This document shows, piece after piece, positions 20,293 through 61,874 of a stretch of 64,000 nt of DNA. The stretch covers positions 20,890 to 84,889 of the forward strand of contig CAYTFK010000002.1 in the NCBI GenBank assembly GCA_964436865.1. Reading direction: 5' to 3'. Positions within the stretch are counted from its first letter, which is position 1, and each line of letters opens with the position of its first letter. The translations under genes were made by a program, and so were the position numbers. The notes under the pieces were generated by a model that ran no database searches, was not told the origin of the DNA, and was given only the letters and a program-made list of their open reading frames with translations. The DNA is from an uncultured Planctomycetaceae bacterium. Its GTDB lineage: Bacteria; Planctomycetota; Planctomycetia; Pirellulales; Thermoguttaceae.

Positions 20293-20348
20293 TACCGGCG
20301 GCTTCCTACTGAACCGGAACCATCAGGACATACAAGGATACTTGAACC

Positions 20349-27486: not shown

Positions 27487-27679
27487 CCCGCCGTTCGGGT
27501 GGTGTCGGTTCGATGGATGTAACGGCCATCGCGTGCAGCGCATCAAAATCTGGACCGGGCCGCAAGGCCTGGAATTGTGCCGTTCCGAGGAAATCGGTGG
27601 AGAGACCGGACTGGCTCTGCTGGCACCCGGTCGTCTATCATCCGGAACTGAATATCAGCACCAGAGGAAATTGACAGGG

Positions 27680-36508: not shown

Positions 36509-36609
36509 CACCGCCGCCGGCCGCGCCCGTCAAGGCGGAGGCAACCGGCTTCCGCCGAGCGTGGTGCGAGAAGTCCAAGGCAACGACGTTGTCGGATTGC
36601 TGATCGATT

Positions 36610-36655
36610 GGCCGCCCCTGCCGAGCCTCCGCGACAGGGGCGGCCTATATTGTTT
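36610..36655 (+). terminator. terminator-like hairpin after glgX
   Basis: 11-bp stem GGCCGCCCCTG / CAGGGGCGGCC (36610-36645) followed by TATATTGTTT. The U-tract is imperfect. Confidence 0.5.
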
Positions 36656-36770
36656 GGCAAGGCCTACGGCTCGAGGCGCGGTCTTCCGGCAGTACCGCAC
36701 CGCAGACCGGAGGGTGAGTTGCCGAGGGTAACGGTTGTCGGTCATGGGGGGATGCGGTTAGGATAGTTCC

Positions 36771-39700
36771 GTGGGCAATCCTACCCGAAAGTCGCCGCCT
36801 CCCCTCCAGAATTCCATGGATGAATGCCGCCTCGGGCAGCGCCTTCACAGTTTAGCGATCTTCTCCTGCGCCATCTTTTGGGCCGCCGGTGCGGTTCTGG
36901 CGGCAGGGTCTGATGCATCCGCGCCGCAGTCGCCCGATTTCTTCGCCGCGTACGAGGACGACGAAACGAGTCCGGAAGAAAGCCGATTGCGCGAACTGCT
37001 CGAACCGGCGCAGGGCGAGCCTTTCGAAATCGGCAAAGATCGCCGGCGCGACCGCGAGATGAACCGTGTCGCGGGATTCGCCCGCCTGAAGGCCGGCTGG
37101 CCGGGCGGCAAGGCGTGGCGATTCTCCTTCTGGGAAGTCAAGGAACTCGTCTGGCACATTTGGAATGGAAACCGGGGGGTGAGCTTCCGCTACTATCCCG
37201 AGTTCAACCAGGCGTGGGCCGCGTATGCGACAAGCCGCGAAGGATCGGCTCCGCGGCCGGCCAGGTGGGTGTTTGCCGCAGGCGACGGCGATCGCTATCG
37301 GCGATCCGGGATTGGGACTGCGGAGTTGCACTACGCCGACGGTCGGTTGATCATGTCGCGCGGCGACCTTCAATTGCTGAGCGTCCCCTTCGCGGGTCCG
37401 CCCGATGAGGTCTACCTGGAGCTGAACGCATACGTTCGCGGCCTGGATCTGGTCCCTTCGGAGATTCCACCGGCACCACTGGAGCTACCGCCGAGGCCGT
37501 GGCCCCCGGCCAGACTGAACTGGCAACTGCGCGCCCCGGATCGGCGCCCCCAAGACCCGCCAGGTTACACCTGGGCTGAACTGCCCGACGGGACCGTGGA
37601 GCTGAAGGCCGACGCGCGGGCACGCTCTGTATTCGCAGCGACGGAAATCGGCGAGCCCGGATTTCGCGAATACCTGTTCGAAGTCGAAAATGCGACGCCG
37701 GGCACAGGCGTCTTTCTGGCGGATCGCGATGGCAAAGAACGGGCCCGCGTGGCCTTCTTTCGGCATCAGCAGTCGGGCGAGACGACGTTCGGTCTGCAAT
37801 GGCCCGGTGCGAACGACGTGAAGCAGTCGGTGGATGACAGGCGGCAGATCGTTCCGCGGGCCGGTGATCGCCGCTGGCTCCGCCTGGTGATGGCCGCCGG
37901 GGTGGTGAAGTGCTGGACGAGCCTCGACGGGCTCACGTGGAGCCAGGCTTCGCCCACAAGCGAAGGTTGGGAAGGCTCGCCAGGCCAGGCTGGAGTCTAC
38001 TGCTGTACGGCCGACGAGCCGCGATCGATCCGATTGAAGAATCTGGCCATTCGGCCGCTGCCGATCCTGTCGACGCTGGTTCCCGACTCGCTTGTCCGCG
38101 CAGTGCCCCCGTTGACCGGCGCGAGCGACGCCGCGGCATGGGACAAGCTTGTGGCCGATTCGCAACCGCCCGATGTTCCACCGCACCTTTGGCGGCGCGC
38201 GTCCTTGGTTCGCACGCTGATCGACAACGGCAAGCAGCCGATGTCGCAATCGCTGCTCGATGAGTTGATCGAAGATGTCGTCGAGACTTCGCGTGATGCC
38301 GAGTTCCTCGTTCGCTTCCTGACCGAGGTGGCGTTGATCCATTCGCTCAATCGCTGGGAAGACTGTGAACGCTACGAGCGGCATTGGGAGCGTCTGGGCA
38401 AACGATTGGCGCGGTTGGGGCATCCGTCGCCGTTCGCCGTGGTGAGCCCGGCAATGCTCCGCACCGATTTCTGGCACGGCCGCCGACTCTCGGCCTTTCC
38501 CTCTACGCTGCTCAGATATGACCTTTTCTGCCAGGCCGGACTGGAGAATTGGGCGGCCGTATCCGATTACGCCCGGCAAATGCTGTTCTGGAACCGCAGA
38601 AGCCACGAGCATTCGTTGGGGCTTGAATCAGCATGGCACGTGGTCGAGTGGGCCGAGGCGCAGGCGGCGATTCGGGCGCCCGAACATCGGGCAAGTCGGC
38701 GGTCGATCTCGCCGCTGTGGCAAGACGGACTTGTCGAGCACCTGAGCAAGGAGGGCTACAACACGCTGACCGAGTTGCACGCCGCCCTGGAAGGGCAGAC
38801 CTATCGCGAGGCGGCACAGATCATGGGAACGGCCGCGCAAAACACCGAGTTGGGCCTTCTGCCCGATCGGCACGATCCGCGCTTGACTGTCTCGCTGCCG
38901 TTGGCCTTCCAGCAGGCAATTGAACAGCATCCGGCACTACGCGCGGAAATGGAGACGAGTTTCGGGGCCGTGGGGTCGGTCCGGCTGAGCGAGGCCGCGG
39001 TGGCCGGCGACGCCGAGCGGATTGCCGCGATCACGATTCAACTCTACGGCACCTCGGCGGCGGCGGCGGCCCACCAGTGGCTTGGCGACCGGGCACTGGC
39101 TCGCGGCAAGTTCGCGGCCGCCGTGGACCACTTCAAGCAGGCACTGCGAGGCGCCTCGCCGGCCCAGCAAACCGATATCCTCGCGCGGATGCGATTGGCG
39201 GAAGCCTATCTGGGTGACGGGAGTAGCGGGCTGGCGGTGGAAAGTACCGTGCGAGTGGGTACTGGGAGTCTCTCGGCGGGGCAATTCGAGGAATTGGTGA
39301 GTCAGATTCACCAGCGTTGCCGGAAGCAAGCGGAATCGCTTCCCGAAACCTGTCCGAAACCCGGAGAATACATACTCCAGCCATGGGCGCGAATCGATGG
39401 CAGCCGCGTGAAACGCGCCGGCGGCTTGCCCGACCGCGGTCTCGACTGGGCCGCGCGCCAGTCGGGCGTCGTGATTGCCGGTCGTCACATGATCGTGAAC
39501 AACCAGGTTGATCAGGTGGCGTTCGATCTGGCCAGCGGGCGGCAGGCCTGGATTCAGCGGCCTTCGCTGGAGGACAAGGATCAGCAGTGGCCGCTTGTGG
39601 TGATGAAACCAGTGGCTCGCGGCGAAAGGGTGTACGTTCGCCGGCTGGCGAGTGGCGGCCCCGAGGTCGCCTGCCTGGAAACGGAGTCCGGAAGACCTCT

Positions 39701-40562
39701 TTGGGCCGCAAAGCCCGACAGTTACGTGGCATCCGACCCGCTGTTCATCGGCGATGAGCTGCTTGTGTTGTCGTGCACGGCAAGGCCAGGAGAGCGATTG
39801 ACGCTGGCCCTGGTGCACTTGGACGTCGACACGGGAGCCGCGATTGAGCGTTGGCCGATCGCCGACTTTCAGGACCTTTGGAACGGCAGGCTGCACTGTC
39901 CGGCGACAGTCGCAGACCGGCGGATTATCGTGGCGGCAGCCGGTCACGTACTGTGCTGCGATGGCGCAGGGCGGCTCGTTTGGCTGCGGCGGCAGACATG
40001 GATCCGCCCGCCGGGAAGCGACTACTCGCGTGCGCGGTGGTGGATGGAGCAGCACCACAGTCCGCCGCTGGCGTCGGCGGGGGCAGTCTATGTGCTGCAG
40101 CCGGGAAGCTGGGATGTAGAATGTATCGATTTGGAGACCGGCGGCCTGCGTTGGCGGCGGACGCTCGTCGAGCCCAATCGCCTGCTGGGCATCAGCTCAG
40201 GCCGACTGCTCGTGGAAACTGGCGACGGCCTGGAGGCAATGGACGCTGCCAGCGGAGAGCTCCTCTGGCACCGCGACCTGGATGGATTGTGTGGCGCGAT
40301 GCCCGGCCAGGATTCGAGAAACATTTGCTGCGCCACGCTCGTTAAGACCAAGGAAGGAGGCAAGCCTCCCCGGCTCGAACTGGTTTGGCTTGACGCAACC
40401 AGCGGCACGCCCGAACGGACGGCTGCCGTCGACCTGCTCGACTGGCCGGAACCGCTGGCCGGCCCCTTCATCGCGGCGGGCGGCCGAATGTGGGGCCTGT
40501 TTGCCGACCAGGCGGCGCCGGCCCAACGAGAAATCCGTCAACTGGCATTGACGGATGAGTAG
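36771..40562 (+). CDS. 1263-aa signal-anchored protein with C-terminal PQQ/BamB-like beta-propeller
   Basis: GTG start and N-terminal hydrophobic anchor. Two beta-sandwich-like N-terminal modules and a helical middle. C-terminal repeats of the PQQ-propeller type (SGRQAWIQ, ESGRPLWAA, ETGGLRWRR, ASGELLWHRD). Confidence 0.75.
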   Translation: MGNPTRKSPPPLQNSMDECRLGQRLHSLAIFSCAIFWAAGAVLAAGSDASAPQSPDFFAAYEDDETSPEESRLRELLEPAQGEPFEIGKDRRRDREMNRVAGFARLKAGWPGGKAWRFSFWEVKELVWHIWNGNRGVSFRYYPEFNQAWAAYATSREGSAPRPARWVFAAGDGDRYRRSGIGTAELHYADGRLIMSRGDLQLLSVPFAGPPDEVYLELNAYVRGLDLVPSEIPPAPLELPPRPWPPARLNWQLRAPDRRPQDPPGYTWAELPDGTVELKADARARSVFAATEIGEPGFREYLFEVENATPGTGVFLADRDGKERARVAFFRHQQSGETTFGLQWPGANDVKQSVDDRRQIVPRAGDRRWLRLVMAAGVVKCWTSLDGLTWSQASPTSEGWEGSPGQAGVYCCTADEPRSIRLKNLAIRPLPILSTLVPDSLVRAVPPLTGASDAAAWDKLVADSQPPDVPPHLWRRASLVRTLIDNGKQPMSQSLLDELIEDVVETSRDAEFLVRFLTEVALIHSLNRWEDCERYERHWERLGKRLARLGHPSPFAVVSPAMLRTDFWHGRRLSAFPSTLLRYDLFCQAGLENWAAVSDYARQMLFWNRRSHEHSLGLESAWHVVEWAEAQAAIRAPEHRASRRSISPLWQDGLVEHLSKEGYNTLTELHAALEGQTYREAAQIMGTAAQNTELGLLPDRHDPRLTVSLPLAFQQAIEQHPALRAEMETSFGAVGSVRLSEAAVAGDAERIAAITIQLYGTSAAAAAHQWLGDRALARGKFAAAVDHFKQALRGASPAQQTDILARMRLAEAYLGDGSSGLAVESTVRVGTGSLSAGQFEELVSQIHQRCRKQAESLPETCPKPGEYILQPWARIDGSRVKRAGGLPDRGLDWAARQSGVVIAGRHMIVNNQVDQVAFDLASGRQAWIQRPSLEDKDQQWPLVVMKPVARGERVYVRRLASGGPEVACLETESGRPLWAAKPDSYVASDPLFIGDELLVLSCTARPGERLTLALVHLDVDTGAAIERWPIADFQDLWNGRLHCPATVADRRIIVAAAGHVLCCDGAGRLVWLRRQTWIRPPGSDYSRARWWMEQHHSPPLASAGAVYVLQPGSWDVECIDLETGGLRWRRTLVEPNRLLGISSGRLLVETGDGLEAMDAASGELLWHRDLDGLCGAMPGQDSRNICCATLVKTKEGGKPPRLELVWLDATSGTPERTAAVDLLDWPEPLAGPFIAAGGRMWGLFADQAAPAQREIRQLALTDE

Positions 40563-40621
40563 ACCCGAAATCCCCCTCCCGCTCGTCGCTGGATGAGGCC
40601 CAACTCAGCATGACATGCGGC

Positions 40622-40650
40622 TTGACACTGGTTTCTGGCCTGACCACAAT
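40622..40650 (+). promoter_or_regulatory. candidate sigma70-type promoter (TTGACA-N17-CACAAT)
   Basis: Perfect -35 at 40622-40627 and -10 at 40645-40650, 35 nt upstream of the ATG at 40685. Confidence 0.4.
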
Positions 40651-40684
40651 CGCTCGGGGCTGCCTGCAAAACCGGAACAGTCAC

Positions 40685-41851
40685 ATGAGGCGAGATTCGG
40701 TCGCCGTGCCGGCGTTGGGCGCGCTGGTGGCGGTGTATTTCGCGTGCGCCGTGGCCCTCGGCGAGGGAGAATGGGAAATAACTGCCGAGAGCGAACGGGC
40801 GCTGGCGGTGGGCCTGGAGTGGATGGCCCGCAACCAGGGTCCCGAGGGGAACTGGACTTCCAACGACCTCGGGTTGGTGAGCACGGGGGCACTGGCTTTT
40901 CTTGCCGCCGGCCACATGCCCGGCCACGGGCGGTATGGCGACAACATTGATCGGGCATTGGATTATGTGCTCCGCAACAGCCGACCCTCGGGTTTGCTCA
41001 ACATCGCCGAAGAGCGCCGCGGTATGTACAACCATGGCCTCTCGACCTTTGTCTTGGGGCAGATCTACGGTACGACGAGCGATCCGCGGATCGGACCGGT
41101 GCTCGACCGTGCGTTGAGGCTTATCTGCCAGACGCAGGCGGGCGACGGCGGATGGGACTACGTTGCGCGGCGGCAGGACCGAGGGCACGACCTCAGTCTG
41201 GCCGTAATGCAGTCGCTCGCCTTGCGAAGCGCGGTCGACAGCGGCCTCGAGATTCCACCTGAAGTCGTGGAACTGGCCATTCAAAGCGTCCGCGAGCATT
41301 ACCTTCCGCAGGGATGCCCGCGCGATGCGGACGAGGAGACGCAACAGCGCCATCCCGGACAGTTCACCTATCAGAAAGGGGGCGGAAACGCCACTGTGGC
41401 GATGGCCGCCGCGGGCGTGGTCTGCCTGCAGGAATTCGGCCAGTACGGCGATTGGCGGATTGAGAAGAACATGGAGGTGATTGCCGAAGCAATCCGCAAG
41501 GACGCCGATCCGGAAAAATGCAGGAAGCAGCGCCGCCCGCCATTCGATGCCTATACGCTCTATTACGTCGCGCAGGCCCTGTACCAGGTTGGTGGAGAGC
41601 ACTGGCGCGAGCATTACCCCCGGCTTCGCGACAGCGTCGTTGCCAGCCAGATCGTCGACGATGATCGCGGCCAGCGCAACGGCATGTGGCAGGGAGAGTC
41701 GCGGGTACCCGGCCGGCCCGGCGATCTGTATCTGACCGCCGTTTGCTGTTTCACCCTGTCGATCCCTAATCGCTATCTGCCCATACTGCAGGAGGGCCAG
41801 ATCGACAGCCTGAAGAAGTTCGGCGGCGGAAACGAAACTGCCGGGGATTAA
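40685..41851 (+). CDS. prenyltransferase / squalene-cyclase-repeat (alpha/alpha-toroid) protein, exported
   Basis: N-terminal anchor/signal. QW-like repeats (RNQGPEGNW, QTQAGDGGWDY) and terpenoid-cyclase-type helical repeat pattern. No DxDD motif. Confidence 0.72.
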   Translation: MRRDSVAVPALGALVAVYFACAVALGEGEWEITAESERALAVGLEWMARNQGPEGNWTSNDLGLVSTGALAFLAAGHMPGHGRYGDNIDRALDYVLRNSRPSGLLNIAEERRGMYNHGLSTFVLGQIYGTTSDPRIGPVLDRALRLICQTQAGDGGWDYVARRQDRGHDLSLAVMQSLALRSAVDSGLEIPPEVVELAIQSVREHYLPQGCPRDADEETQQRHPGQFTYQKGGGNATVAMAAAGVVCLQEFGQYGDWRIEKNMEVIAEAIRKDADPEKCRKQRRPPFDAYTLYYVAQALYQVGGEHWREHYPRLRDSVVASQIVDDDRGQRNGMWQGESRVPGRPGDLYLTAVCCFTLSIPNRYLPILQEGQIDSLKKFGGGNETAGD

Positions 41852-41897
41852 CCCCGGGACACCAGGTACACGGCATAGAGATCCACCCCTTCGCACC

Positions 41898-44357
41898 ATG
41901 TTTCTTTCCCCCTGGTTTGCCATTGCGGGACTGGCGGCGGCGCTCGGGCCGGTGATTATTCACCTGCTCAATCGGCAGCGGTATCGCGTCGTCGAGTGGG
42001 CAGCCATGGATCTGTTGCGACAGGCGGCGACGCGCAACCGGCGGATCATGCGAATCCGCGACTTGCTCCTGCTGATCCTGAGGACCGCTGTGGTCGTGTT
42101 GTTTGGGCTGGCGATGGCACGGCCCTATCTCTCGACTGCAGCGAAGGCCGTTGAAGCCGATCAACCGGTGCACGCTGTGCTCCTGGTGGACAACAGCTTG
42201 AGCATGGGCTACCAGCGTCTCGAGGGCACTCTCCTGGACACGGCCAAGCAGAGGACCCGAGAGTTCATCGATCGATTGCCGCCGGGAAGCCGCATCTCGG
42301 TGCTGCCGATGTGCGGCCCGGCGGGCGAGTTTAGCCTGACCGGATATAGCACGGAGCAAGACGCCCTGGAAGCCCTCGACAGCATCAAATCGGTCGACCG
42401 CAGCGCACCGGCACTGGCGGCGATGGATCTGGCCCAAGAGGCCTGCCGCCGGGTGCCCACTCCGGTGGCGAAACAGATCGTGTTCATATCCGACCAGCAG
42501 GCGTCGAATTGGCCGGCCGAGATCAATCCAAGCCAGATCGAACGGTTGATGGCACCGGTGCAACTGGTCCAAGTGTCGCCCGATGAATGGGAGAACGCCT
42601 GGGTGGCAGGGTTGGAACTGCAGGACGGTATCGCCGATCTCTCCACGCCGGGCGTCTTCCTGGCCACGATCGCTTATCAAGGCCCCGCGCCGCGGCACGA
42701 CGTCCAGGTGACGCTTGCGCTCGACGGCCGGCCGGTAGCGGCGCAGACCATCGACCTCCATCCCGGCCAGGTCCGCGAGGTGCGGTTTCCCGACTGTGAG
42801 TTCGACACCACGGTGGAACCGGGGCGAGCGAACTTCGTGACGGCGGCGGTTTCTATCCCCCATGACCGCCTGCCGGGGGACGATGAGCGCGTGCTGTCGG
42901 TGCCGGTCGTGGCAGGGCTGCCGGTGGTGTTCGTCGATCAACTGGGCGATCGTGAAGATCGGCAGAGGAATCGGCTGGGAGAGACTTGCCGGCTGCGAAG
43001 GCTTTTGGCGCCAGGGACCGGCGCGGACAACGGCACGCGCCAACTGGTCCAGATCCGGCACCTGCGGATCGACCAGCTTGACCGACACGTGCTGCAAGAC
43101 GCTCGCCTGGTGGTGATTGCGGGCGTGGACGAGCCAGGCAATTCGGTCTCGCTGTTGCGGGAGTACCTTGAACAGGGAGGGTCGCTGGTCATCGGAGCGG
43201 GTGGAGACTTCAATCCGGCGGCATGGTCGGAGGCTGCCTGGCGCGAAGGGCTGGGCATTCTGCCGGCACCGCTCAAGCCGGTCGCCGTAGGGGGCGTACC
43301 GGGGGCTGCCGCCGGCGCGATCAAGCCGTTTCAGCTCGATACTCGTTCCATGATCCACGACTACTTCCAGCTTGAACAGACCTCGGCCAGCGAGCTGGAG
43401 GATCTCTACCGCCAGCCGTATTTCTTCAAGGCAGTGGAGGCCGATCTCAGCGAGTCGGTGATCGAAACGCTCGTCAGCCAGGTGAGTCGACAGGCCGCCG
43501 AGCGACGCAAGGTTCTGGACGACTGCTACGCAAGGCTGGAGGCGCTGGCTGAGCTCGAAGTGCGGCGTCCGCTCAGCGAGGAAGAACGCCACGAGCGGAC
43601 AACACTGGAATCGGAGCGCGACCAGACGCGGCCGCACTGGCTGCTGACCGGCGTGGCGGGCGGCCACGGCGACGGCTCGCTCTCGCCCGAGGAGACGGCC
43701 GAACGGTCGCGTCCGCGTGTGCTGGCACGTTTCAGCAACCAGGTGCCGTTCATGATCGAAAGGCAAATCGGTGCCGGCCGGGTGCTGTTCGTCTCCACCG
43801 GTGTGTACCGCGACTGGAACACCTTGACGACGACCCACGCCGTACTCATTCTCGACCGCATCTTCCGCCGCCTGCTCGAGATGACGCTGCCGGTGCGGAA
43901 CCTCGACACTGCAGGCCGGATCGTGCTGCCGGTGGCCGCCGAAGAGCGGCAGCACCAATTCCGGCTGGTGCAACCCGGCGGCAAGGAGTCGCCGTTGTCG
44001 GTCGACGCGCTCGGCCCGGAACGCTATGGCGTCATGGTAGAGAACCCCTCTGAACGAGGCGTTTACCAGGTCCAGGCACGGCCGGCGCAAGATACGCCAG
44101 GCGAGTCGTGGCAGGTTCGGCTTGCCGTGAACGGCCCGGCGTATGAATCGGATCTCACGCCCCTCGACGAGCAGGATCTCACCGAGCGGCTGGCCGGTTT
44201 CCGTTGGACCGCGACCGGTCAGATGATCACGCTCGCCGCGGCTCCGCGGGAAGGGCGCGATTTCTGGAAATGGCTCATCGTCGCCGTGATTGCCGGCCTG
44301 CTTGGTGAGCTGCTGTTCGTCGCCTGGCCATCGCTGCGCGGAGGGCGGGCGCCATGA
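41898..44357 (+). CDS. BatA-N-terminal-domain / vWA membrane protein
   Basis: Aerotolerance-regulator N-terminal signature (FLSPWFAIAGLAAALGPVIIHLLNRQR...). vWA MIDAS DxSxS (VDNSLS). C-terminal TM segment. Confidence 0.85.
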   Translation: MFLSPWFAIAGLAAALGPVIIHLLNRQRYRVVEWAAMDLLRQAATRNRRIMRIRDLLLLILRTAVVVLFGLAMARPYLSTAAKAVEADQPVHAVLLVDNSLSMGYQRLEGTLLDTAKQRTREFIDRLPPGSRISVLPMCGPAGEFSLTGYSTEQDALEALDSIKSVDRSAPALAAMDLAQEACRRVPTPVAKQIVFISDQQASNWPAEINPSQIERLMAPVQLVQVSPDEWENAWVAGLELQDGIADLSTPGVFLATIAYQGPAPRHDVQVTLALDGRPVAAQTIDLHPGQVREVRFPDCEFDTTVEPGRANFVTAAVSIPHDRLPGDDERVLSVPVVAGLPVVFVDQLGDREDRQRNRLGETCRLRRLLAPGTGADNGTRQLVQIRHLRIDQLDRHVLQDARLVVIAGVDEPGNSVSLLREYLEQGGSLVIGAGGDFNPAAWSEAAWREGLGILPAPLKPVAVGGVPGAAAGAIKPFQLDTRSMIHDYFQLEQTSASELEDLYRQPYFFKAVEADLSESVIETLVSQVSRQAAERRKVLDDCYARLEALAELEVRRPLSEEERHERTTLESERDQTRPHWLLTGVAGGHGDGSLSPEETAERSRPRVLARFSNQVPFMIERQIGAGRVLFVSTGVYRDWNTLTTTHAVLILDRIFRRLLEMTLPVRNLDTAGRIVLPVAAEERQHQFRLVQPGGKESPLSVDALGPERYGVMVENPSERGVYQVQARPAQDTPGESWQVRLAVNGPAYESDLTPLDEQDLTERLAGFRWTATGQMITLAAAPREGRDFWKWLIVAVIAGLLGELLFVAWPSLRGGRAP

Positions 44358-46801
44358 GTGTGTCCTCGCTCTTTGGCCGGCTGCTGGGACTGGAACAGGC
44401 GGAAGCGATCGAGCGAGTCGAGCCGTCTCTGGCGGCGCCGTGGGCTCGGGAATCGCCGGCATGGCTGGTGCTTGGCGGGATCGCGATGGCGGCGCTGGCA
44501 GTGGCTGTCTACGCCCGGTACCAGCCTACGCGGCGGCATCGTGCCCGGTGGGCGCTGGCGGTGGTGCGTGCGAGCCTGCTGTTGCTGTTGCTGATCATCC
44601 TCGCCGAGCCAGTGCTTGCGGTCCGCACGGTAAACCGCCTCCGTCCGGCGCTGTGGCTGCTGGTGGACGGCTCCGAGAGCATGTCAATCAGTGACGATCT
44701 GCCGGAGAGCGACCGCCTGCGGCTGGCCGCGGCGGCCGGCCTGGGGCAGGCATCGCGGCCCGAACGTGCCGCCGGGACCCCTTCGCGAATGGATTACCTG
44801 AAAGCCATGCTCCAGAGGCCGGACAGGAATGTGCTCCAGAGGCTGGAGGAGAGATTCCGCCTGCGAATCTTCCTGTTTGACCGCAACGACGGGGTGCGGG
44901 GGCTGGAATTGTCGAGCGGCAACGACCCCCGCCTTGATCCGGCACACATTGCCTCGCAGCTAACCGCGGTCGGCGACGTCACCGCGTTGGGCGCGGCAAT
45001 GGAGGATCTGGGCCGGCGCCAGAGCACGAGCAATGTCGCGGGTCTGGTTGTGTTCAGCGATTTCAACCAGAACTCGGGGCTTTCTCCGCTCGACGCGGCC
45101 AGGCGACTTGGCGTGAGCGTCTACACGGTGGGCATCGGTCCGGTGGCGGCGTTGGATCTGGCGGTCGATCTTCAGGTGCCGCCGCTGTTGAAGAAAGACG
45201 AACGGTCCCCGCTGACGGCGACCGTGCGTCAAGACGGGCTCGCCGGGCAAAGCGTGACGGTGAGATTCTTCAGCCGGGAACTGACGGCTGCCGGCAGCGA
45301 TGCACCGGCGATCGAAATCGGTCAACGTACAATCGACTTGCACGACGCGGTCGAAACGATCGAAATGCCGTACGTTCCGGCGACGACGGGACGCTATGTT
45401 CTGAGCGCCGAGATCGACGCGATTGAAGGCGAGGTGGTCGGGGAAAACAATCGCGCGTCCCGCGAGACGACCGTCCGCGACGACTATCTGCGGCTGCTGT
45501 ATGTGGAATACGAGCCTGCCTGGGAATGGCGCTTTGTCAAAGAGGTCTTCCATCGCGACAAGCTCGTCGGCCAGCGCGGTTTCCGGACCTTCCTCCGTTC
45601 GGCCGACCCCCGGGTGCGCGCGGCGAATGAGCTGTTTCTGACAACACTCACGCCGCCGCGAAGCGAGTTCTTCGCGCACGACGTGATCATCCTCGGCGAC
45701 ATGCCGGCATCAGCCCTGAGCCCCGGCTTCTGCCGTATGACCAGGGAGTACGTCGATCAGTTTGGCGGCGGGCTGGTGGTCGTCGCGGGGTCGCGATACG
45801 GACCTGGAGAGCTGGCCGGCACGCCGCTGGGCGATCTTCTGCCGGTGAAAGTCGATCCACACGCGAGGCGTCGGGATCGCCAGCCGTTCGAAATCGCACG
45901 GACGGCCGACGCCGCACAATACGATTTCATGCAGTTGGGTGCGAGCGATGCGGAGAATGCCAAGGCGTGGGGAAATCTGGGCCCGCTGGCGTGGTATCAG
46001 CCGATCGAACAACTGCGACCACTGGCCACCGCGCTCGCCGTACACCCGACCGACAAGTGTGGCGACGGTCAACAACCGCAGCCGATCATCGCCGCACAGT
46101 ACTACGGGCGCGGCGAGGTAGTCTACATCGGTTTCAACGAACTGTGGCGTCTGCGCAAGAAGTACGGGGAACAGTACTATCGCCAGTTCTGGGGCCAGTT
46201 GATCCACCGCCTTGCACTGCGACACGCCTTGGGAATCCAAAAACGGTTCGTGGTGCGAACCGATCGCAAGCAGTATCGGGCCGACGATCACGCGCTGGTT
46301 ACCGTTGAAGCCTATGACGCCGACTTCCGGCCGCTGGGGGAAGAGAAGCTCCCTGATGGCAAGCTGGAGGCGGAACTCATTCTGCCGTCGCGAAACTCGA
46401 TTGACGAGTCGGGCGCGCGCCCGCTGGCGGTGAGCCAGCTTCGCGAGGGAATCTATGAAGCCAGGGTTCCCGTCTTCGCGGGGGGCGAACATCGAATCCG
46501 TGTGCGGGACCCCATCACCGGCGAACCGGTAGAAGCGAGCTTCCGCGTGGTCAGCACTTCGATCGAGCGGCAGAGGGCGGTCCGCGACACCGCGCTGGCC
46601 GAGAGCCTGGCCAGTGCCACCGGAGGCCGAAGCTATGACCTGACGACGCTCGATCGGCTGCCGGACGAGATCGGCGCGTCAGCCAGGACGGAAACCAGCG
46701 TGGAAGTAGTGCCGCTCTGGAACACTTGGCTGACGTTTGTCGCCGTGGTCGGTTTGATGCTGGGCGAATGGTTCGGACGGAAATGGGTGAACCTGCCATG
46801 A
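44354..46801 (+). CDS. vWA-domain membrane protein with GATase1-like C-terminal region
   Basis: ATGA overlap with the upstream gene. Two N-terminal TM segments. MIDAS VDGSES. DVIILGD...GGGLVVVAG segment. C-terminal TM. Confidence 0.8.
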   Translation: MSVSSLFGRLLGLEQAEAIERVEPSLAAPWARESPAWLVLGGIAMAALAVAVYARYQPTRRHRARWALAVVRASLLLLLLIILAEPVLAVRTVNRLRPALWLLVDGSESMSISDDLPESDRLRLAAAAGLGQASRPERAAGTPSRMDYLKAMLQRPDRNVLQRLEERFRLRIFLFDRNDGVRGLELSSGNDPRLDPAHIASQLTAVGDVTALGAAMEDLGRRQSTSNVAGLVVFSDFNQNSGLSPLDAARRLGVSVYTVGIGPVAALDLAVDLQVPPLLKKDERSPLTATVRQDGLAGQSVTVRFFSRELTAAGSDAPAIEIGQRTIDLHDAVETIEMPYVPATTGRYVLSAEIDAIEGEVVGENNRASRETTVRDDYLRLLYVEYEPAWEWRFVKEVFHRDKLVGQRGFRTFLRSADPRVRAANELFLTTLTPPRSEFFAHDVIILGDMPASALSPGFCRMTREYVDQFGGGLVVVAGSRYGPGELAGTPLGDLLPVKVDPHARRRDRQPFEIARTADAAQYDFMQLGASDAENAKAWGNLGPLAWYQPIEQLRPLATALAVHPTDKCGDGQQPQPIIAAQYYGRGEVVYIGFNELWRLRKKYGEQYYRQFWGQLIHRLALRHALGIQKRFVVRTDRKQYRADDHALVTVEAYDADFRPLGEEKLPDGKLEAELILPSRNSIDESGARPLAVSQLREGIYEARVPVFAGGEHRIRVRDPITGEPVEASFRVVSTSIERQRAVRDTALAESLASATGGRSYDLTTLDRLPDEIGASARTETSVEVVPLWNTWLTFVAVVGLMLGEWFGRKWVNLP

Positions 46802-48510
46802 GCGAGCTGTCGATCCTCCATCGGCGACTGCGGCGGCTTCTGCGCCGTCGGCGCTGGATGCGCCGCGGCCTGGTAGCGGCAACCGCAGGGCTCGTGCTCC
46901 TATCGGTAACGGCGGCTCTCTTTCTGGCCGACTGGCTGCTCGAAATGAGCCGTCTCGAGCGGATGCTCGCCATGGCCGGAGCGGTGTTGCTCTCCGTTTT
47001 GGCCGTTCGTCGTTCTGTACGGCAGTGGCTCGGAAAGCGAGAAACAGAACTCGACGCGGCTTTGTGGGTGGAGAGACAGCAACAGATCGACAGCGAACTG
47101 GTGGCCGCACTGCAGTTCGAGTCGCCGCAGGCGGCCCAATGGGGCTCCGTCGAACTGGAACAGGCGGTGATTGGCCGCGCCGCCGCTATCGGCGCGAAAA
47201 TCGATGTGATGCAGGGCGTCTCCATCCGGCCGCTGGTTCGCCGGGGGCTCTGGCTGGCAGCGAGCGTTGCGGCGGCGGCGGCAGGGGTGTGGTTCTTTCC
47301 GCAACATGCGGCGACTTTTGCGGATCGCGTCCTGCTCGGAACGAACCGCTATCCGACCGCAACGAAGATCGATGCGCTGCGAATCAACGGCCAGTCGATC
47401 GCGCTTCGAGATGCTCAAGTGCGCGTGAAATGCCCGTATGGCCAGCCGGTTGACTTCGAGGCCGAGTGTTCCGGGCGATTGCCGCTCGCCGGGCGCGCCG
47501 AGCTGCGCACGCGGGTCGGAGGCACAATTTCGCTCGCCCTGGAACCCGGGTCGGCCGAACATGTGTATCGCGGGCTGCTTCCCCGGCTGGTGGAGAGTGT
47601 GGAATACGAGTTGTACCTGGGCGATGCCCGGACCGATCCCGGATCGCTGGATGTGGTGCCGCTGCCGGTGATTGATTTGGAACTGGTGGTGACACCGCCA
47701 CCCTATTCCGGGGCCAATGCGCCGCCCGCCGTGTTGGGCGGCCTGCGCCAAGCCGCGGTTTTGGAGGGCTCCCAGGTTGAATTGCGAATCGCCTCCGACA
47801 AGCCGCTCCGCCAGGCGACTCTGATGCTCGACGATCAGCCGTTCGAATTGACGTACCGTGAAGCCCGAGCGGAAGTGGCGACGGGCGAAGCGGGCGGGGT
47901 CTCGGCACTCCAGCGACGGAAGCATTGGACCCTCGCGACGGCCGGCACTCCCCTGGAAGCCGTCACGAATCCGGTACGGTACTCGATCCAGGTGACTGAC
48001 ACGGACGGGTTGGGACTCGAACGGCCGCTTAGCGGAGTGATTCGCATCAAGCCCGACGATCCGCCACGAATTGTCGCCAGCGCGGTGACGCGGCACGTAT
48101 TGCCGGCGGCGAGGCCGACGATCCTGTTCGAGGCCGACGACGATCATGGTTTGGCTCGCGTAGTGGTCCGGCCTGAGGTCACGCGGGCCGACGGCCAGGT
48201 CGTGGCGACGGAGGTTCTGCCCGTATTCGTCCACGAGGAGAGTAGTGCATTGAGGACATCGATCCAGGAATCCTATCGCCTCGATCTTGCGCCGCTGGAA
48301 CTTGCCAAGGGGGACCAGGTGAAGATTGTCCTGGAGGCCGCAGACTATCGTGGATCGCGGCAGGGGAAGGTTGCTCAGACGGAACCGATCGTGTTCGAGG
48401 TCACTGACGAACAGGGGATTCTGGCGGCGCTCAGCGAATCGGACCGCGAGTCGGCCCGACAACTGCAGACGATGATTGACCGGCAACTCGATGTGGGAGA
48501 AGAACCATGA
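46798..48510 (+). CDS. membrane-anchored protein, unknown function (beta-rich extracytoplasmic region)
   Basis: ATGA overlap with the upstream gene. Arg-rich N-terminus followed by two TM segments. No catalytic motif. Confidence 0.7.
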   Translation: MSELSILHRRLRRLLRRRRWMRRGLVAATAGLVLLSVTAALFLADWLLEMSRLERMLAMAGAVLLSVLAVRRSVRQWLGKRETELDAALWVERQQQIDSELVAALQFESPQAAQWGSVELEQAVIGRAAAIGAKIDVMQGVSIRPLVRRGLWLAASVAAAAAGVWFFPQHAATFADRVLLGTNRYPTATKIDALRINGQSIALRDAQVRVKCPYGQPVDFEAECSGRLPLAGRAELRTRVGGTISLALEPGSAEHVYRGLLPRLVESVEYELYLGDARTDPGSLDVVPLPVIDLELVVTPPPYSGANAPPAVLGGLRQAAVLEGSQVELRIASDKPLRQATLMLDDQPFELTYREARAEVATGEAGGVSALQRRKHWTLATAGTPLEAVTNPVRYSIQVTDTDGLGLERPLSGVIRIKPDDPPRIVASAVTRHVLPAARPTILFEADDDHGLARVVVRPEVTRADGQVVATEVLPVFVHEESSALRTSIQESYRLDLAPLELAKGDQVKIVLEAADYRGSRQGKVAQTEPIVFEVTDEQGILAALSESDRESARQLQTMIDRQLDVGEEP

Positions 48511-51500: not shown

Positions 51501-51923
51501 TATCCGCCTCTCAGCGATTCCGAACAGACAATGCTCCAGCAGCTTCTGGCGGCGCTATTGCAACAAGCGGCTCCTCCCGGCTTGTCTGCGGCTACCGAAA
51601 ACACCGACTCGCCGACGCCGCAATCTGCCGACGGCGCTCAGGCGATGGCGGCGGACGCGAACCGGCCGTCCAGTGCAATGCCGCCAGCCGCAGCGAACCT
51701 TCCGGCGACGTCGGCATCCGCCATGGCGAACGGAGCGCGACAGGCGTCCGCCGCTGGACAAGGAAGCGGCGACGCGGACGCCAGCGGGCCGCCGTTTGCC
51801 GATGAGCCGTGGTTCCTCGAGCTGCCACCGGAGGTTCGCAATGCGATGCGCGCCAACGCCCAGCAGCGCCCGCCGCGCGGATACGAAGAAAAGCTCCAAC
51901 GCTACTTCAGAAACATCGATTGA
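48507..51923 (+). CDS. 1138-aa exported Ala/Gln/Glu-rich coiled-coil protein
   Basis: ATGA overlap with the upstream gene. Signal peptide MLLLLAALICAPALG. Nearly continuous low-complexity helical sequence. Conserved-looking C-terminal end (PPRGYEEKLQRYFRNID). Confidence 0.7.
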   Translation: MNPRGRAMLLLLAALICAPALGQVDRRGTAKQELQAQVRRMARDLVGGVLDVQILQLEENGLTGLDLYRDIRDMRAHLDELIEAEMPEVIAILDRIEPSPAAERDKLLQAARQQSREILVRLLAERQNLLRRLRIAEMAAQVLRLIEMQSAVLEATRSLPERAASEREATVVAAIEDSRDIKVVYLGLKQTLHDVSTWGGPVAGEAAEGLRLLERGRVDAEMNAAAQALGNADFAASAASQEAVIRGLRSLLETLRRAQGLVEGDQNAMRNMLRSISQRQEEIRQATSQPDLAPTEIERLVEEQSQVRSSLAEAAEELGASEARQSLQRAEAAAAEAAARLFEDQPQDALSQQDQVLAELARVEQQLNEAGVDTPPAESVASREWNERAGDLAAAKEDVERIRKQQEGASLAVHDKPVEAAKQEEQIAAGLAEVPSNRQLPAQVDAALAAAERAARDAAGRMDQPQQQRAEAARRAERAIQQAASEIDAALADAQRQEIASRIGELAQAAAALDHAAAQQRGIAGEAHVAAEGTGLKASQAQELGEQQSEVRENVEATAKGLIETAPTAAAKAQAAQPMMQATQDQLAAASRQPGEPSKPAARQSAEHASQAASLLHEAAREVRRVMQEQARQLAALSGEQLDVANDARRAVEQAVDQRTESIGKRLEQLSAASRKVREASAEQQRAGGRPDAARAMELAAAIEEALRQQEQADRAASEMEASESRSPLDAIGAQQAVADAAQNLAEQAGGERPETTALRHARQAADDAVRGLLDSRPSEAQAARSLARRSLETAIEAARAAVAEATKKPPGEVDPSAQQRVSKSAAEAGELAAQDAPAAAGTLAEAQQHSDDARRTASNGDVDTARQSQAETAGLLERAAREIAEAEQRLAEQAALQLANQAVQSRQLADRSLPVDPAAHAALQSAERQAQTAAGRVPQAPQQALPAEKATAEAFDRAVGELAAREQELARDKSLAEQLALLLEQLLDPTTAQSTATYPPLSDSEQTMLQQLLAALLQQAAPPGLSAATENTDSPTPQSADGAQAMAADANRPSSAMPPAAANLPATSASAMANGARQASAAGQGSGDADASGPPFADEPWFLELPPEVRNAMRANAQQRPPRGYEEKLQRYFRNID

Positions 51924-51948
51924 ACCGAACTCAGCGAGAGAACAGACC

Positions 51949-52989
51949 ATGAGCAACAACGATGTCCCGTCCGATGACGTGGCCGCCGTCGAGGAGTGCC
52001 GCCAGGCCTATGAGCGGATACGGAGCGAACTGGCGAAGGTGATCGTCGGCCAGGAGAACGTGATCGAGCAGGTGCTCATCGCGATTCTGGCCCGTGGTCA
52101 CGCGCTTCTGGAGGGTGTGCCGGGACTGGCCAAGACGTTGCTCGTCAGTTCGCTGGCCGAGGCGACTCACCTGAGCTTCAAACGGATCCAGTTCACCCCC
52201 GACCTCATGCCCAGCGACGTGACAGGAACCGAGATCATTCAGGAAGACATTGAGACGGGGCACCGGAATTACAAGTTCCTGCCCGGCCCGATATTCGCCA
52301 ACATGATTCTGGCCGATGAAATCAATCGCACGCCCCCCAAGACGCAGGCCGCGATGCTGGAAGCGATGCAGGAACGGCAGGTGACTTCCGGAGGAACCGT
52401 GCATCGGCTGCCCGAGCCTTTCTTCGTTCTCGCCACGCAGAACCCGCTCGAGCAGGAAGGAACCTACCCTTTGCCCGAGGCGCAGCTCGACCGCTTCCTC
52501 CTCTACATCAAGGTGGAGTATCCCACCGGTGCGGAGGAATGGGAGATCGCCCGACGTGTGACAACCGGGCAACAAGGCAAGATCGCTCCGCTGATGACGG
52601 GCAAGGAGATCCTCGGCTTTCAGGATCTGGTGACGCGCGTGCCCGTCAGCGACCAGGTGCTCGGCTACGCCTGGGCGCTGGTGCGGGCGTCGCGACCCGG
52701 AACGTCGGAAGCCCCCGAGTTCGTCGACCACTGGGTATCGTGGGGAGCCGGGCCGCGCGGGGTGCTCACCCTGGTGACGTGCGCCAAGGCTCGCGCGATC
52801 CTCCACGGCCGCTATCACGCCGCCCTGGGCGATGTGCAGGCGATCGCCAAGCCGGCGCTGCGGCATCGCATCGCCGGCAATTACGCGGCCCAAGCCAACA
52901 ACCTCACCGGCGATCGTCTCGTGGAGATGCTGATGGAGGCGCTGCCAGCCGATCGGCGCTACGATAAGCCCGCAGCCGTCGCCGGTTAA
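51949..52989 (+). CDS. moxR: MoxR-family AAA+ ATPase
   Basis: Walker A region LLEGVPGLAKT. Walker B ILADEINR. ATQNP sensor motif. The ATG at 51949 gives the typical length of about 346 aa. Confidence 0.92.
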   Translation: MSNNDVPSDDVAAVEECRQAYERIRSELAKVIVGQENVIEQVLIAILARGHALLEGVPGLAKTLLVSSLAEATHLSFKRIQFTPDLMPSDVTGTEIIQEDIETGHRNYKFLPGPIFANMILADEINRTPPKTQAAMLEAMQERQVTSGGTVHRLPEPFFVLATQNPLEQEGTYPLPEAQLDRFLLYIKVEYPTGAEEWEIARRVTTGQQGKIAPLMTGKEILGFQDLVTRVPVSDQVLGYAWALVRASRPGTSEAPEFVDHWVSWGAGPRGVLTLVTCAKARAILHGRYHAALGDVQAIAKPALRHRIAGNYAAQANNLTGDRLVEMLMEALPADRRYDKPAAVAG

Positions 52990-53003
52990 TAGAAAGCGAT
53001 CCC

Positions 53004-53912
53004 GTGGCCAAGAGCATCCTTTCCCGCTATCTCGACCCGGCCGTCCTGAGCCGCATCGCCGCGCGGCGAATCGAGCCCCGCGGCCTGGTGCTGGGCAACC
53101 TGGCCGGAGCACACCGGTCACCGATGGCGGGATTCGCCGTCGAATTTGCCGGGCATCGGCCCTATGTCTGGGGCGATGATCCGAAACACATCGACTGGCG
53201 AATCTATTTCAACCGCCAGCGGTATATGATCAAGCAGTATGAGATGGAGACGAACTTTGTCTGCCACCTCGTGCTCGACACCAGCGCGTCGATGCGCTAC
53301 GGCGAAGGCGACGGGCAGAAGTTGCTGTATGCCGCGCGGATGATCACTACGCTGGCGTATGCCGTATTGCGGCAGAGCGATAAGGTCTCGCTCACCACAT
53401 TTGACGAGCGATTGCGAGGCTTTTTGCCGCCGAGCAACTCGATGGCCCAGGTGGTCCGCATGACCGGGCACCTTGACCAGACGCGGCCGGTTCACAAGAC
53501 CAACATGGCCGACTGCCTGATGGAACTCGCCGGACGGATGCGGCGGCGCGAGATCGTCATGATTTTCAGCGACTTCTTCACCGATCTGGACGTCCTGGAA
53601 AAAGCCATACAGCGGTTCCGCTATCACCGTCACGAGGTGGTGCTCTTCCAGGTCTTGCACCACGATGAGTGGGACTTCGACTTCGAGGGCTCAGTGAAAT
53701 TCGTCGGCCTCGAAATACCCGAGGAACTGCTCACCAGACCCGAAGAACTCCGACGGTCCTACTTGGCAGCCCTGGACGAGTTCAATGGTCGCTTCGACGC
53801 GATCTGCCAGCGGAATCGCGTGGAGCGGGTACCAGTCGACACCAGCCGCGATTTGGCCGGGACATTCATCGATTACCTCAACCAGCGCAGCCTGCTGAAC
53901 CGGGGCCGATAG
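53004..53912 (+). CDS. DUF58 domain protein (MoxR partner)
   Basis: GTG start 14 nt after moxR. Signature (G.H.S...G.GVEFAGHRPY..GDD.K.IDW) and DTSASM. Confidence 0.9.
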   Translation: MAKSILSRYLDPAVLSRIAARRIEPRGLVLGNLAGAHRSPMAGFAVEFAGHRPYVWGDDPKHIDWRIYFNRQRYMIKQYEMETNFVCHLVLDTSASMRYGEGDGQKLLYAARMITTLAYAVLRQSDKVSLTTFDERLRGFLPPSNSMAQVVRMTGHLDQTRPVHKTNMADCLMELAGRMRRREIVMIFSDFFTDLDVLEKAIQRFRYHRHEVVLFQVLHHDEWDFDFEGSVKFVGLEIPEELLTRPEELRRSYLAALDEFNGRFDAICQRNRVERVPVDTSRDLAGTFIDYLNQRSLLNRGR

Positions 53913-54190
53913 GCTGAATCCTCCAACAGCGGGGTACATGTCACTAGAACCGGCAAATTCTTCCTATTCTTCCCGGACTTCTTCATTTTGCTCGCCGCCG
54001 TGATATAGTGAGGCTAACATTGGACCGGCCGGCGGTTCGATAGACCTCATATATCCCCCCTTTTCCTAATGTTGCGTCTATTGGTATTCGCTCGGGAAGC
54101 AAAAGGCGAGGCGGCATTCGTTCCCAATTGCATGTGGGCAACGGCACCAGACTGGCTTCCAGCGCAAACCTCAAAAGTCCGAGCGGTCCG

Positions 54191-61807: not shown

Positions 61808-61874
61808 GCCTGCCTCCCGCGGTCGGCTCCGCGACGCTCCGCCTGGCTCGTTGCCAATACAGGCTTCAAACGGA

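Follow-up and report, generated by a model that had tools for sequence, protein, structure and literature searches.

Eight genes on one strand

Between positions 36771 and 53912 of a 64,000-nucleotide (nt) window from an uncultured Planctomycetaceae bacterium (assembly GCA_964436865.1, contig CAYTFK010000002.1, positions 20,890 to 84,889), eight large open reading frames (ORFs) are present on the plus strand and no credible minus-strand gene was found. The window is that whole stretch and all coordinates refer to it. The genes, named g1 to g8 here, are listed in Table 1 and encode a beta-propeller giant, an alpha/alpha toroid, two vWA membrane proteins, an immunoglobulin (Ig)-repeat membrane protein, a long helical protein, a MoxR ATPase and a DUF58 protein. 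Their positions agree in the ORF list with those of the original prediction, which had been made from the sequence alone, and so do the three ATGA start/stop overlaps at 44354-44357 (g3/g4), 46798-46801 (g4/g5) and 48507-48510 (g5/g6). The other gaps from g2 onwards, predicted to be 14-46 nt, are 46 nt (g2/g3), 25 nt (g6/g7) and 14 nt (g7/g8). Public records name every component 'hypothetical', and a profile search with each ORF gave Pfam families for g1, g3, g4, g7 and g8 and, weakly, for g5. Against the 90%-identical relative L058, a Thermoguttaceae metagenome-assembled genome (MAG), the ratio of non-synonymous to synonymous substitution (dN/dS) was 0.03-0.26 across all eight genes, and this purifying selection marks them as real, constrained genes. 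The upstream boundary of the cluster is a terminator-like hairpin about 90 nt past the stop of an alpha-amylase/CBM48 gene, and no regulatory RNA or tRNA was found in the window.

Table 1. Genes and signals of the cluster, with positions in the window (aa, amino acids; TM, transmembrane; E, E-value of the match).
Feature	Position	Strand	Remarks
Terminator-like hairpin and U-rich tract	36597-36660	+	fold -37.4 kcal/mol, z -4.5, 0/200 shuffles as stable
g1, 1263-aa exported or anchored giant	36771-40562	+	PQQ_2 E 1e-18; dN/dS 0.16
Sigma-70-like promoter candidate, TTGACA-N17-CACAAT	40622-40650	+	only such hit in 36-55 kb
g2, predicted secreted single-domain alpha/alpha toroid, 389 aa from ATG	40682-41851	+	ORF open from 40610 (413 aa as read)
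g3, BatA_N-vWA protein, 819 aa	41898-44357	+	BatA PF07584 E 1e-14, VWA_2 E 1.6e-10, TIGR02226 E 1.7e-18
g4, vWA / GATase1-like membrane protein, 815 aa	44354-46801	+	DUF7408 E 1.9e-8
g5, DUF4175-type membrane protein, 570 aa	46798-48510	+	PF13779 25.6 bits (cut-off 27.3)
g6, predicted secreted helical protein, 1138 aa	48507-51923	+	signal-like N-terminus; no family match
g7, MoxR AAA+ ATPase, 346 aa, cytoplasmic	51949-52989	+	AAA_3 E 4.5e-62 (208 bits), AAA_lid_2 E 1.4e-13
g8, DUF58 (vWA-like), 302 aa, cytoplasmic	53004-53912	+	PF01882 E 5.4e-37, VWA_2 E 8e-9

Conservation was followed by an alignment search with g4, which with one genome per species gave 363 relatives; the best 80 of the 363 loci were kept and mapped by tblastn and hidden Markov models (HMMs). 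These loci come from Thermoguttaceae, Pirellulales/Pirellulaceae and Planctomycetales (Schlesneria, Planctomicrobium). Where enough sequence was available, the order toroid, BatA_N-vWA, vWA-GATase1-like, Ig-repeat membrane protein, long helical protein, MoxR, DUF58 was kept in 90-97% of loci, the single genes being present in 50/54 (g2), 58/60 (g3), 62/66 (g5), 52/55 (g6), 38/41 (g7) and 36/40 (g8). The same eight genes were found by independent gene calls in a complete 10.2-Mb genome. An in-frame start overlapping the upstream stop recurred at g3/g4 (38/71 orthologous loci), g4/g5 (29/69) and g5/g6 (39/60), and at g2/g3, g6/g7 and g7/g8 in 0-1 loci each. The recurrent overlaps therefore set apart the four membrane/periplasmic genes g3-g6 as a tightly coupled core, with the toroid gene leading and the cytoplasmic pair trailing, and they suggest translational coupling. 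Thus g2-g8 is a real seven-gene operon, conserved class-wide in the Planctomycetia, to which g1 is loosely attached as an eighth gene; the single co-directional cluster first described stands for g2-g8, and the propeller giant proved to be merely a facultative member. The accessory genes are conserved beside the MoxR core in relatives, on which the original prediction depended. Apart from g1, no flanking gene recurs across the loci, and no transporter or hydrolase is conserved nearby.

Some loci stand out. One MAG, CAYWNA01 (L032 and L075), carries the complete g2-g8 set once and g2-g5 a second time, there without g6-g8 within 10 kb, either through paralogy or because the bin is mixed. Typical planctomycete copies of the operon also occur in records labelled Candidatus Nealsonbacteria and Candidatus Kuenenia (L014, L070), and these contigs are probably mis-binned.

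The organism was found in wastewater, sludge and anaerobic-digester metagenomes. Contigs from four RNA-labelled metagenome runs cover every gene at a depth of 0-20 and bridge the g2/g3, g6/g7 and g7/g8 junctions, and none of them crosses 40414-40592 (the end of g1) or 53994-54277 (the spacer after g8). Sparse, assembled, unstranded and possibly affected by DNA carry-over as they are, these contigs fit g2-g8 as a unit to which neither g1 nor the downstream ketoacyl synthase (KAS) gene belongs. The first 24 codons of g2 as read from 40610 have an identity of 0.09 among orthologues and public gene calls for g2 in this cluster are 388-389 aa long, so the ATG at 40682 is the likelier start than the originally read 40610, and a promoter-like site thereby falls inside a 119-nt g1-g2 spacer. 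The predicted promoter does exist as a site, unchanged in L058 where flanking spacer positions vary; the hit count is no higher than chance, with 1.9 sigma-70-like hits expected in 36-55 kb and one observed.

The spacer with its promoter-like site, the few genomes in which the cluster is split and RNA data too thin to prove a single transcript would all be accommodated if the eight genes were mere neighbours with several unrelated functions. That explanation is very improbable, as the g2-g8 order is conserved across two orders of Planctomycetia, the stop/start overlaps are conserved with it, and the component families are also found together in Gemmatimonadota and on a planctomycete plasmid.

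The individual components

The cytoplasmic pair is the most conserved part of the cluster. The MoxR protein g7 has the Walker A sequence GVPGLAKT, no hydrophobic segment and a mean identity of 78% across orthologues (dN/dS 0.03); besides the AAA_3 match it was matched by bpMoxR at 46.6 bits (E 2.8e-12), and its MRP subfamily label is given by analogy. The DUF58 protein g8, 14 nt downstream, has a mean identity of 71% (dN/dS 0.065) and is presumed, from the analogy with other MoxR systems, to be the MoxR adaptor. It has neither a TM segment nor a signal peptide, and the earlier claim that every non-ATPase component carries one or the other consequently fails for this protein. The predicted DxSxS motifs were recovered at D98 of g3, D105 of g4 and D92 of g8.

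A FabF-like KAS gene (54128-55456, plus strand) follows the DUF58 gene here and in L010, L058 and L084 alone. It was rejected as a cluster member, recurring as it does in these close relatives only. In Paracoccus the homologous four-gene operon is followed by fabZ-lpxA-lpxI-lpxB (L081, 10631-14038, listed with the KAS observation). Such neighbours may reflect a lipid or envelope neighbourhood or be a coincidence.

The two vWA membrane proteins follow a common plan, in which two N-terminal TM segments around an Arg-rich loop are followed by a vWA domain, an Ig-like domain, a GATase1-like domain, a beta-sandwich and a C-terminal TM segment. g3 opens with a BatA_N double-TM hairpin, and its TM segments are at residues 3-24, 56-74 and 792-810, with the Arg-rich loop between the first two. 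The vWA domain has the metal ion-dependent adhesion site (MIDAS) sequence DNSLS at residue 98 (DxSxS) and precedes the Ig-like (CARDB) and GATase1-like domains. Among orthologues, CARDB was matched in 5/22 and DUF4350/GATase1_like in a few, and the N-terminal hairpin with its loop is the best conserved part (0.61-0.70 vs 0.39-0.49 elsewhere). In g4, two TM segments are followed by the vWA domain with its MIDAS, an Ig-like domain, an alpha/beta domain (GATase1-like/DUF7408), a second Ig-like domain and the C-terminal TM segment. Of its MIDAS residues, D105, S109 and D236 show no variation and T204 almost none, the alpha/beta domain is best conserved (0.69), and there are about 1000 homologues at 54-93% identity. 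The profiles of g3 and g4 gave only a marginal match, in the GATase1-like region alone, with a probability of 8%, and paralogy of the two rests on the parallel domain order and not on sequence. Because of the positive-inside rule applied to the Arg-rich loops, both vWA domains are predicted to be periplasmic, in agreement with the BatA-type protein BB0173 of Borrelia, for which a periplasmic vWA domain was found experimentally (PMC5700661).

The Ig-repeat protein g5 had been called a two-TM protein; in the AlphaFold2 (AF2) model it has three TM segments instead, a TM hairpin and a third segment. The N-terminus before the hairpin is Arg-rich, about 70 aa between hairpin and third segment form a helical domain in the cytoplasm, and behind that segment come some four Ig-like domains in tandem and a C-terminal helix. 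The helical domain is better conserved than the Ig part. An alternative start is given by the public gene call on the contig of the window, which begins at GTG 46783. The Pfam match of g5 itself is below the cut-off (Table 1); several orthologues carry precomputed PF13779 matches and have the NCBI name DUF4175. A search of 1.84 billion proteins gave a family of 8853 50%-identity clusters at E<=1e-3, of which the top 150 entries, listed without taxonomy, were all close orthologues. No match to g5 was found among plasmids by tblastn or among PDB sequences with its profile. A comparison was made with the 1268-aa DUF4175 protein of Gemmatirosa kalamazoonensis plasmid 1 (Gemmatimonadota), which matches PF13779 at profile positions 621-766: in hhalign, residues 18-528 of the g5 profile aligned to its residues 27-502 with a probability of 98.1% (E 7e-14). 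Because its profile aligns to the first 500 residues of that protein, g5 is identified, at the level of sequence, as the N-terminal part of a split DUF4175.

The composition of g6, with 62% Ala/Glu/Gln/Leu/Arg and few Pro and Gly residues, is consistent with a long helical protein, and no tandem repeats of note were found in it. Orthologues are 885-1455 aa long and conserved in the N-terminal third (0.46) and the last 48 aa (0.55), the latter with the motif PWF..LPPE.R..I...RPPRGYEE.L.RYF. The remainder of the Gemmatirosa DUF4175 protein is likewise helical and of low complexity, has a similar composition and ends in PPGY..LV..YF. When g5 and g6 were concatenated, the PF13779 match vanished altogether, probably through composition filtering. 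g6 is probably, though not demonstrably, the detached C-terminal half of DUF4175.

The toroid g2 is the best conserved non-cytoplasmic component, with a mean column identity of 63% over 24 orthologues and a dN/dS of 0.07, and a signal-like hydrophobic segment follows M25. Its proposed identity as a QW-repeat alpha/alpha toroid was confirmed by four Q-x(2-5)-G-x-W motifs and by profile matches in the PDB to the C domains of squalene-hopene cyclases, covering about 90 residues (E 2e-4). No Pfam family was assigned, the match to SQHop_cyclase_C being at E 0.023, and no match to the TED family was obtained. By these matches the predicted fold class is that of the terpene-cyclase/prenyltransferase toroids. 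QW-type repeats and the SQHop_cyclase_C match are common to g2 and the squalene-hopene or class II terpene cyclases. The cyclases have a two-domain beta-gamma architecture with a catalytic DxDD motif, whereas g2 consists of one exported toroid of about 360 aa, and DxDD is not conserved in the consensus of the 24 orthologues; g2 was rejected as a cyclase of this kind. A genuine two-domain squalene-hopene cyclase is encoded elsewhere in the window (3381-5678, minus strand; SQHop_cyclase_N/C E 1e-112 and 6e-132), and hopanoid-type lipids are therefore made independently of the g2 toroid.

The beta-propeller predicted in g1 was found by the PQQ_2 match and is confined to the C-terminal part. After an N-terminal hydrophobic segment, about 850 aa are without a recognisable family (TPR matches were sub-threshold, E 0.04-0.5) and precede a BamB-like eight-bladed propeller, which the g1 profile matched to BamB in the PDB over residues about 900 to 1263 only (E 1.7e-12). 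The propeller is common to g1 and BamB, and g1 is far larger, with some 850 extra N-terminal residues of unrecognised fold. A g1 homologue was linked in 18/45 loci with room for it (about 40%); overall, 16 loci have it ahead of the operon and co-directional with it, 2 have it after g8 and 1 has it inverted. The gene thus moves around the operon yet stays attached; it is a facultative member and probably has its own transcript. It is duplicated in tandem in L007, and rearranged copies were seen in L007 (3-5992), L015 (19320-22460), L053 (18294-22355) and L069 (2-3514).

The rates of change differ between the compartments. MoxR, DUF58 and g2 evolved slowest relative to L058 (dN/dS 0.03-0.07 vs 0.16-0.26 for the other genes), and over 34349-55456 the aa identity to L058 was 99.4% for the amylase gene, 98% for MoxR, 96% for g2 and 85-90% for g1 and g3-g6. 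Synonymous divergence (dS) was similar along this stretch (0.23-0.34) despite the uneven aa divergence, and the differences consequently reflect weaker constraint on the exported and membrane proteins g1 and g3-g6.

Structure comparison of the AF2 models of g4 (predicted local distance difference test, pLDDT, 77) and g5 (pLDDT 85) matched single domains of g4 to CARDB and complement macroglobulin (MG) domains and g5 to titin Ig domains and alpha-2-macroglobulin/complement MG arrays. In whole-chain Foldseek searches the two models gave generic Ig/MG/CARDB and glycosidase-accessory matches with TM scores of 0.1-0.2, and such matches of models serve for naming domains and not for assigning a function. 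They would fit a periplasmic machine that captures or processes macromolecules (polysaccharide, protein or lipid-linked) and is reset by MoxR; cargo would be bound or trapped by the toroid, by the GATase1-like domains and by the Ig/macroglobulin-like arrays. The g2 fold, which is common to macroglobulin thioester domains and polysaccharide-active enzymes, and a TPR/Peptidase_MA protein in the Gemmatirosa cluster would agree with this. The explanation is held with little confidence: the Ig-like matches are generic, none of the domains showed a catalytic motif or could be assigned to a family, g2 lacks both a TED match and a conserved DxDD, and no transporter or hydrolase gene is conserved near the loci.

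Several other genes of the window deserve mention. At 57976-59955 (minus strand) a domain resembling the large subunit of [FeFe]-hydrogenase, with Fe-S modules, is joined to HisKA and HATPase_c in one protein, a candidate H2- or redox-sensing histidine kinase. Beside it lie genes for a response regulator, a receiver-histidine-kinase hybrid, a HydA-type hydrogenase and a NuoF-like flavoprotein; the genes grouped with it, all on the minus strand, are at 57467-57979, 56324-57460, 60023-61882 and 61875-63896. Two Cpn60/GroEL-family genes stand about 400 nt apart on the plus strand (18052-19920 and 20346-21968), and the gene at 10348-11763 (plus strand) encodes a neutral/alkaline ceramidase N-terminal domain (E 6e-12), which belongs to a family unusual in bacteria. 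A DsbD-type thiol:disulfide interchange protein (DsbD_N, DsbD_TM, thioredoxin-like; 27455-29800, plus strand) is encoded 7 kb upstream of the cluster, and this gene is not conserved in the loci of relatives.

Proposed working of the operon

The preferred reading, given a probability of about 55%, is that g2-g8, often together with g1, would be a lineage-specific enlargement of an AAA_3 MoxR/DUF58/BatA_N-vWA envelope module in which MoxR and DUF58 service a periplasmic assembly. In the predicted compartments, g7 and g8 are cytoplasmic and the bulk of g1-g6 lies outside the cytoplasm. The inner-membrane proteins g3, g4 and g5 and the exported g6 and g2, with g1 where present, would form a stoichiometric periplasmic assembly of two MIDAS vWA domains, GATase1-like domains, Ig-like stalks, the long helical protein, the toroid and the propeller. 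A cytoplasmic MoxR hexamer would employ the vWA-like DUF58 protein as adaptor and, with it, grip conserved cytoplasmic pieces of the membrane proteins, namely the g3 BatA_N loop and, in g5, the N-tail and the helical domain. ATP would be spent to assemble, reset or switch the periplasmic complex, and its two MIDAS sites may bind a partner. This mechanism is inferred from the topology of the components and the established behaviour of CbbQO, NorQD, RavA-ViaA and midasin.

The likeliest physiological role, by analogy, would be the building or maintenance of cell-envelope architecture, since the alphaproteobacterial operon with equivalents of g7, g8, g3 and g4 has an envelope-integrity and morphology phenotype. 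For this operon, cmdABCD of Rhizobium leguminosarum, defects in envelope integrity and morphology and poor growth on complex medium are described in three papers (PMC5700661, PMC3893208, PMC5118466) and in the title of Vanderlinde 2011.

These planctomycetes are FtsZ-less and budding, with an unusual envelope architecture and a division that is unexplained. A bolder reading, which is improbable, would make g2-g8 a Planctomycetia-specific, periplasm-spanning structural machine, with an Ig stalk and a helical protein of >1000 residues anchored in the inner membrane and MIDAS sites switched 'inside-out' in an integrin-like manner, that sets envelope architecture or joins division. The morphology phenotype in alphaproteobacteria, a DUF4175 division protein, AdvA, and the conservation across two orders are hints at such a machine and not tests of it. 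In the literature searched, DUF4175 was met only as a domain of AdvA, an essential division protein of Acinetobacter baumannii (PMC7481262).

Several points weigh against the reading as a serviced envelope module. Apart from the quality of the RNA-run contigs, one of them begins ahead of the candidate -35 box, at 40593, and use of the promoter candidate at 40622-40650 is therefore unproven. The cluster is broken at differing points in a few genomes (L056, L063, L066, L075, L020), so that physical linkage is not obligatory. The g6 profile did not match the C-terminal half of the Gemmatirosa DUF4175 protein significantly, the two having only the short terminal motif in common. The equivalence to the R. 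leguminosarum genes RL3499-RL3502 was inferred from Shinella, which also belongs to the Rhizobiaceae, and not from the RL3499-RL3502 sequences. Among the Bat-type loci, those of Leptospira biflexa are without a phenotype, deletion of all bat genes leaving oxidative-stress tolerance unaltered (PMC3557215), and the phenotypes of Riemerella batA and moxR are stress-related (oxidative and heat survival; virulence) and not structural (PMC11834572).

Operons with AAA_3/MRP-type MoxR, DUF58 and BatA are among the most widespread bacterial clusters of unexplained molecular function, and the phenotypes reported for them disagree by species, from aerotolerance, envelope integrity and stress survival to none. 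The planctomycete version is the richest form found here, with seven fixed genes and with two cytoplasmic, three membrane and two or three exported proteins, and it provides the MoxR/DUF58/BatA family as a whole with a list of parts and an architecture that can be tested. Planctomycete cell biology would gain a conserved, unannotated envelope complex to examine. If the operon were only a Bat-like stress module, the family would still be better defined, with DUF4175 and GATase1-like proteins as regular partners; were the complex shown to have a structural part in the envelope or division of planctomycetes, the importance would increase greatly.

Relation to known systems

To our knowledge, no molecular mechanism has been established for Bat-type systems. 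The resemblance to Bacteroides-type aerotolerance (Bat) operons claimed at the outset holds for the core, as AAA_3/MRP-type MoxR, DUF58 and a BatA_N-vWA inner-membrane protein with a periplasmic vWA domain are common to this cluster, to Bacteroides fragilis BatI and to spirochaete bat loci, and it does not extend to the rest. The vWA proteins of the Bat loci are about 330 aa long, whereas those here reach about 800 aa and contain additional Ig and GATase1-like domains, and the toroid, DUF4175 and propeller are extra here. MoxR is last but one in this cluster and comes first there, Bat operons having 'MoxR positioned at the forefront' (PMC11834572). In Pfam and related family searches, no BatD, no SH3 and no significant TPR family was found in the eight proteins. 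The cluster was rejected as a classical Bat operon, with no BatD, no BatC/BatE-type TPR/SH3 protein and MoxR and DUF58 as genes 7-8 of 8. Much of the accessory set called unusual at the outset is not peculiar to this lineage: the toroid and the propeller giant are probably lineage-specific, and the supposed two-TM protein is part of a wider DUF4175 set, to which the long helical protein is linked by a short C-terminal motif only.

A classical Bat system protecting against oxidative stress or providing aerotolerance, for example by supplying reducing power to the periplasm, is unlikely here. MAGs classified as Schlesneria, Planctomicrobium and Blastopirellula, which are aerobic genera, have the operon too, and no redox domain was found in any of the eight proteins by family searches. 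The same explanation draws on the common MoxR (AAA_3), DUF58 and BatA_N-vWA core and on a host that looks anaerobic, judging from the [FeFe]-hydrogenase genes in the window and the anaerobic-digester and wastewater runs. Of the mutants, those of Riemerella batA and moxR, altered in oxidative and heat-stress survival (PMC11834572), favour it; the unaltered stress tolerance of L. biflexa (PMC3557215) tells against it, as do the missing BatD and BatC/BatE-type TPR/SH3 proteins and a MoxR that is not first. For Bacteroides bat, aerotolerance is the phenotype reported, as cited in PMC5700661 and PMC11834572.

CbbQ-CbbO, NorQ-NorD, RavA-ViaA and midasin/Rea1 resemble the cytoplasmic pair in combining a MoxR-clade AAA+ ring with a vWA/MIDAS adaptor, and they are analogues in mechanism and not in family. 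In such MoxR-vWA pairs the adaptor docks its target through an acidic residue and ATP is spent on remodelling (PMC3495828, PMC3893208). Adaptor and target share a compartment in all of these pairs; here, DUF58 is cytoplasmic, and most of the presumed client mass, with two further MIDAS domains, would be periplasmic.

The co-location of MoxR, vWA proteins and a beta-propeller protein is also seen in the MoxR-vWA-beta-propeller ternary conflict systems of Kaur, Burroughs, Iyer and Aravind (2020) (PMC7159879). Those systems are mobile and have a MoxR of the bpMoxR clade and VMAP/effectors, whereas the present locus is core and syntenic, with an AAA_3 MoxR and a facultative propeller of the BamB/PQQ type. 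An anti-invader function is hardly credible: although bpMoxR matches g7 and the periplasmic components evolve 3-8x faster than the cytoplasmic ones, the 46.6 bits of that match compare with 208 bits for AAA_3, no VMAP/effector domains were found, and no PADLOC family matches any of the eight proteins. Moreover, the propeller is absent from 60% of loci, and the locus behaves as a vertically inherited core of fixed order with every dN/dS <0.3.

The reading as an enlarged envelope module agrees best with operons of two other kinds. The first has the cmdABCD layout (RL3499-RL3502 of R. leguminosarum), in which MoxR, DUF58, a BatA_N membrane protein and a g4-like DUF7408/GATase1-like protein correspond to g7, g8, g3 and g4. 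In Shinella, four consecutive ORFs were matched by g7 (E 1e-108), g8 (E 2e-8), g3 (E 6e-5) and g4 (E 3e-14), and Paracoccus has the same four-gene layout with BatA and DUF7408/GATase1_like Pfam matches. These operons differ in having four genes with MoxR first, the similarity of their membrane proteins to g3 and g4 is remote (E 1e-5 to 3e-14), and the fetched Shinella and Paracoccus neighbourhoods contain no toroid, DUF4175, helical protein or propeller gene. In the literature searched, there was no functional mention of DUF4159, DUF7408 or TIGR02226, and MoxR was not linked to a model planctomycete.

The second kind is found on plasmids. On Gemmatirosa plasmid 1, a g4-like gene, TPR/Peptidase_MA, DUF4159, MoxR, DUF58, a g3-like BatA_N-vWA-GATase1_like gene and the 1268-aa DUF4175 gene stand in a row, and on plasmid pPL62-3 of Planctomyces sp. 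SH-PL62 the order is MoxR, DUF58, g3-, g4- and g5-like genes and a secreted helix-rich protein. All five of g3 (E 1e-45 to 1e-60), g4 (E 4e-54 to 2e-80), g5 (hhalign E 7e-14; HMM E 1e-23), g7 and g8 have full-length homologues there, and a long helix-rich or low-complexity protein or region comes after the Ig part. MoxR-DUF58 is first or mid-cluster there, and neither plasmid has the toroid or the propeller giant. Gemmatirosa has one 1268-aa DUF4175 protein where g5 and g6 are split here, and DUF4159 and the TPR/Peptidase_MA protein in addition.

The cluster is closest to these BatA_N/GATase1-like/DUF4175 clusters of Gemmatimonadota and a planctomycete plasmid and to the alphaproteobacterial operon of cmdABCD layout, and its gene order reads as a cyclic permutation of the modular set of these relatives. 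The secreted terpene-cyclase-like toroid, the BamB-like propeller giant and the split of DUF4175 are probably lineage-specific. The underlying family is widespread and already known; new here is its Planctomycetia form, with a toroid, a split DUF4175, a rotated gene order and a facultative propeller giant.

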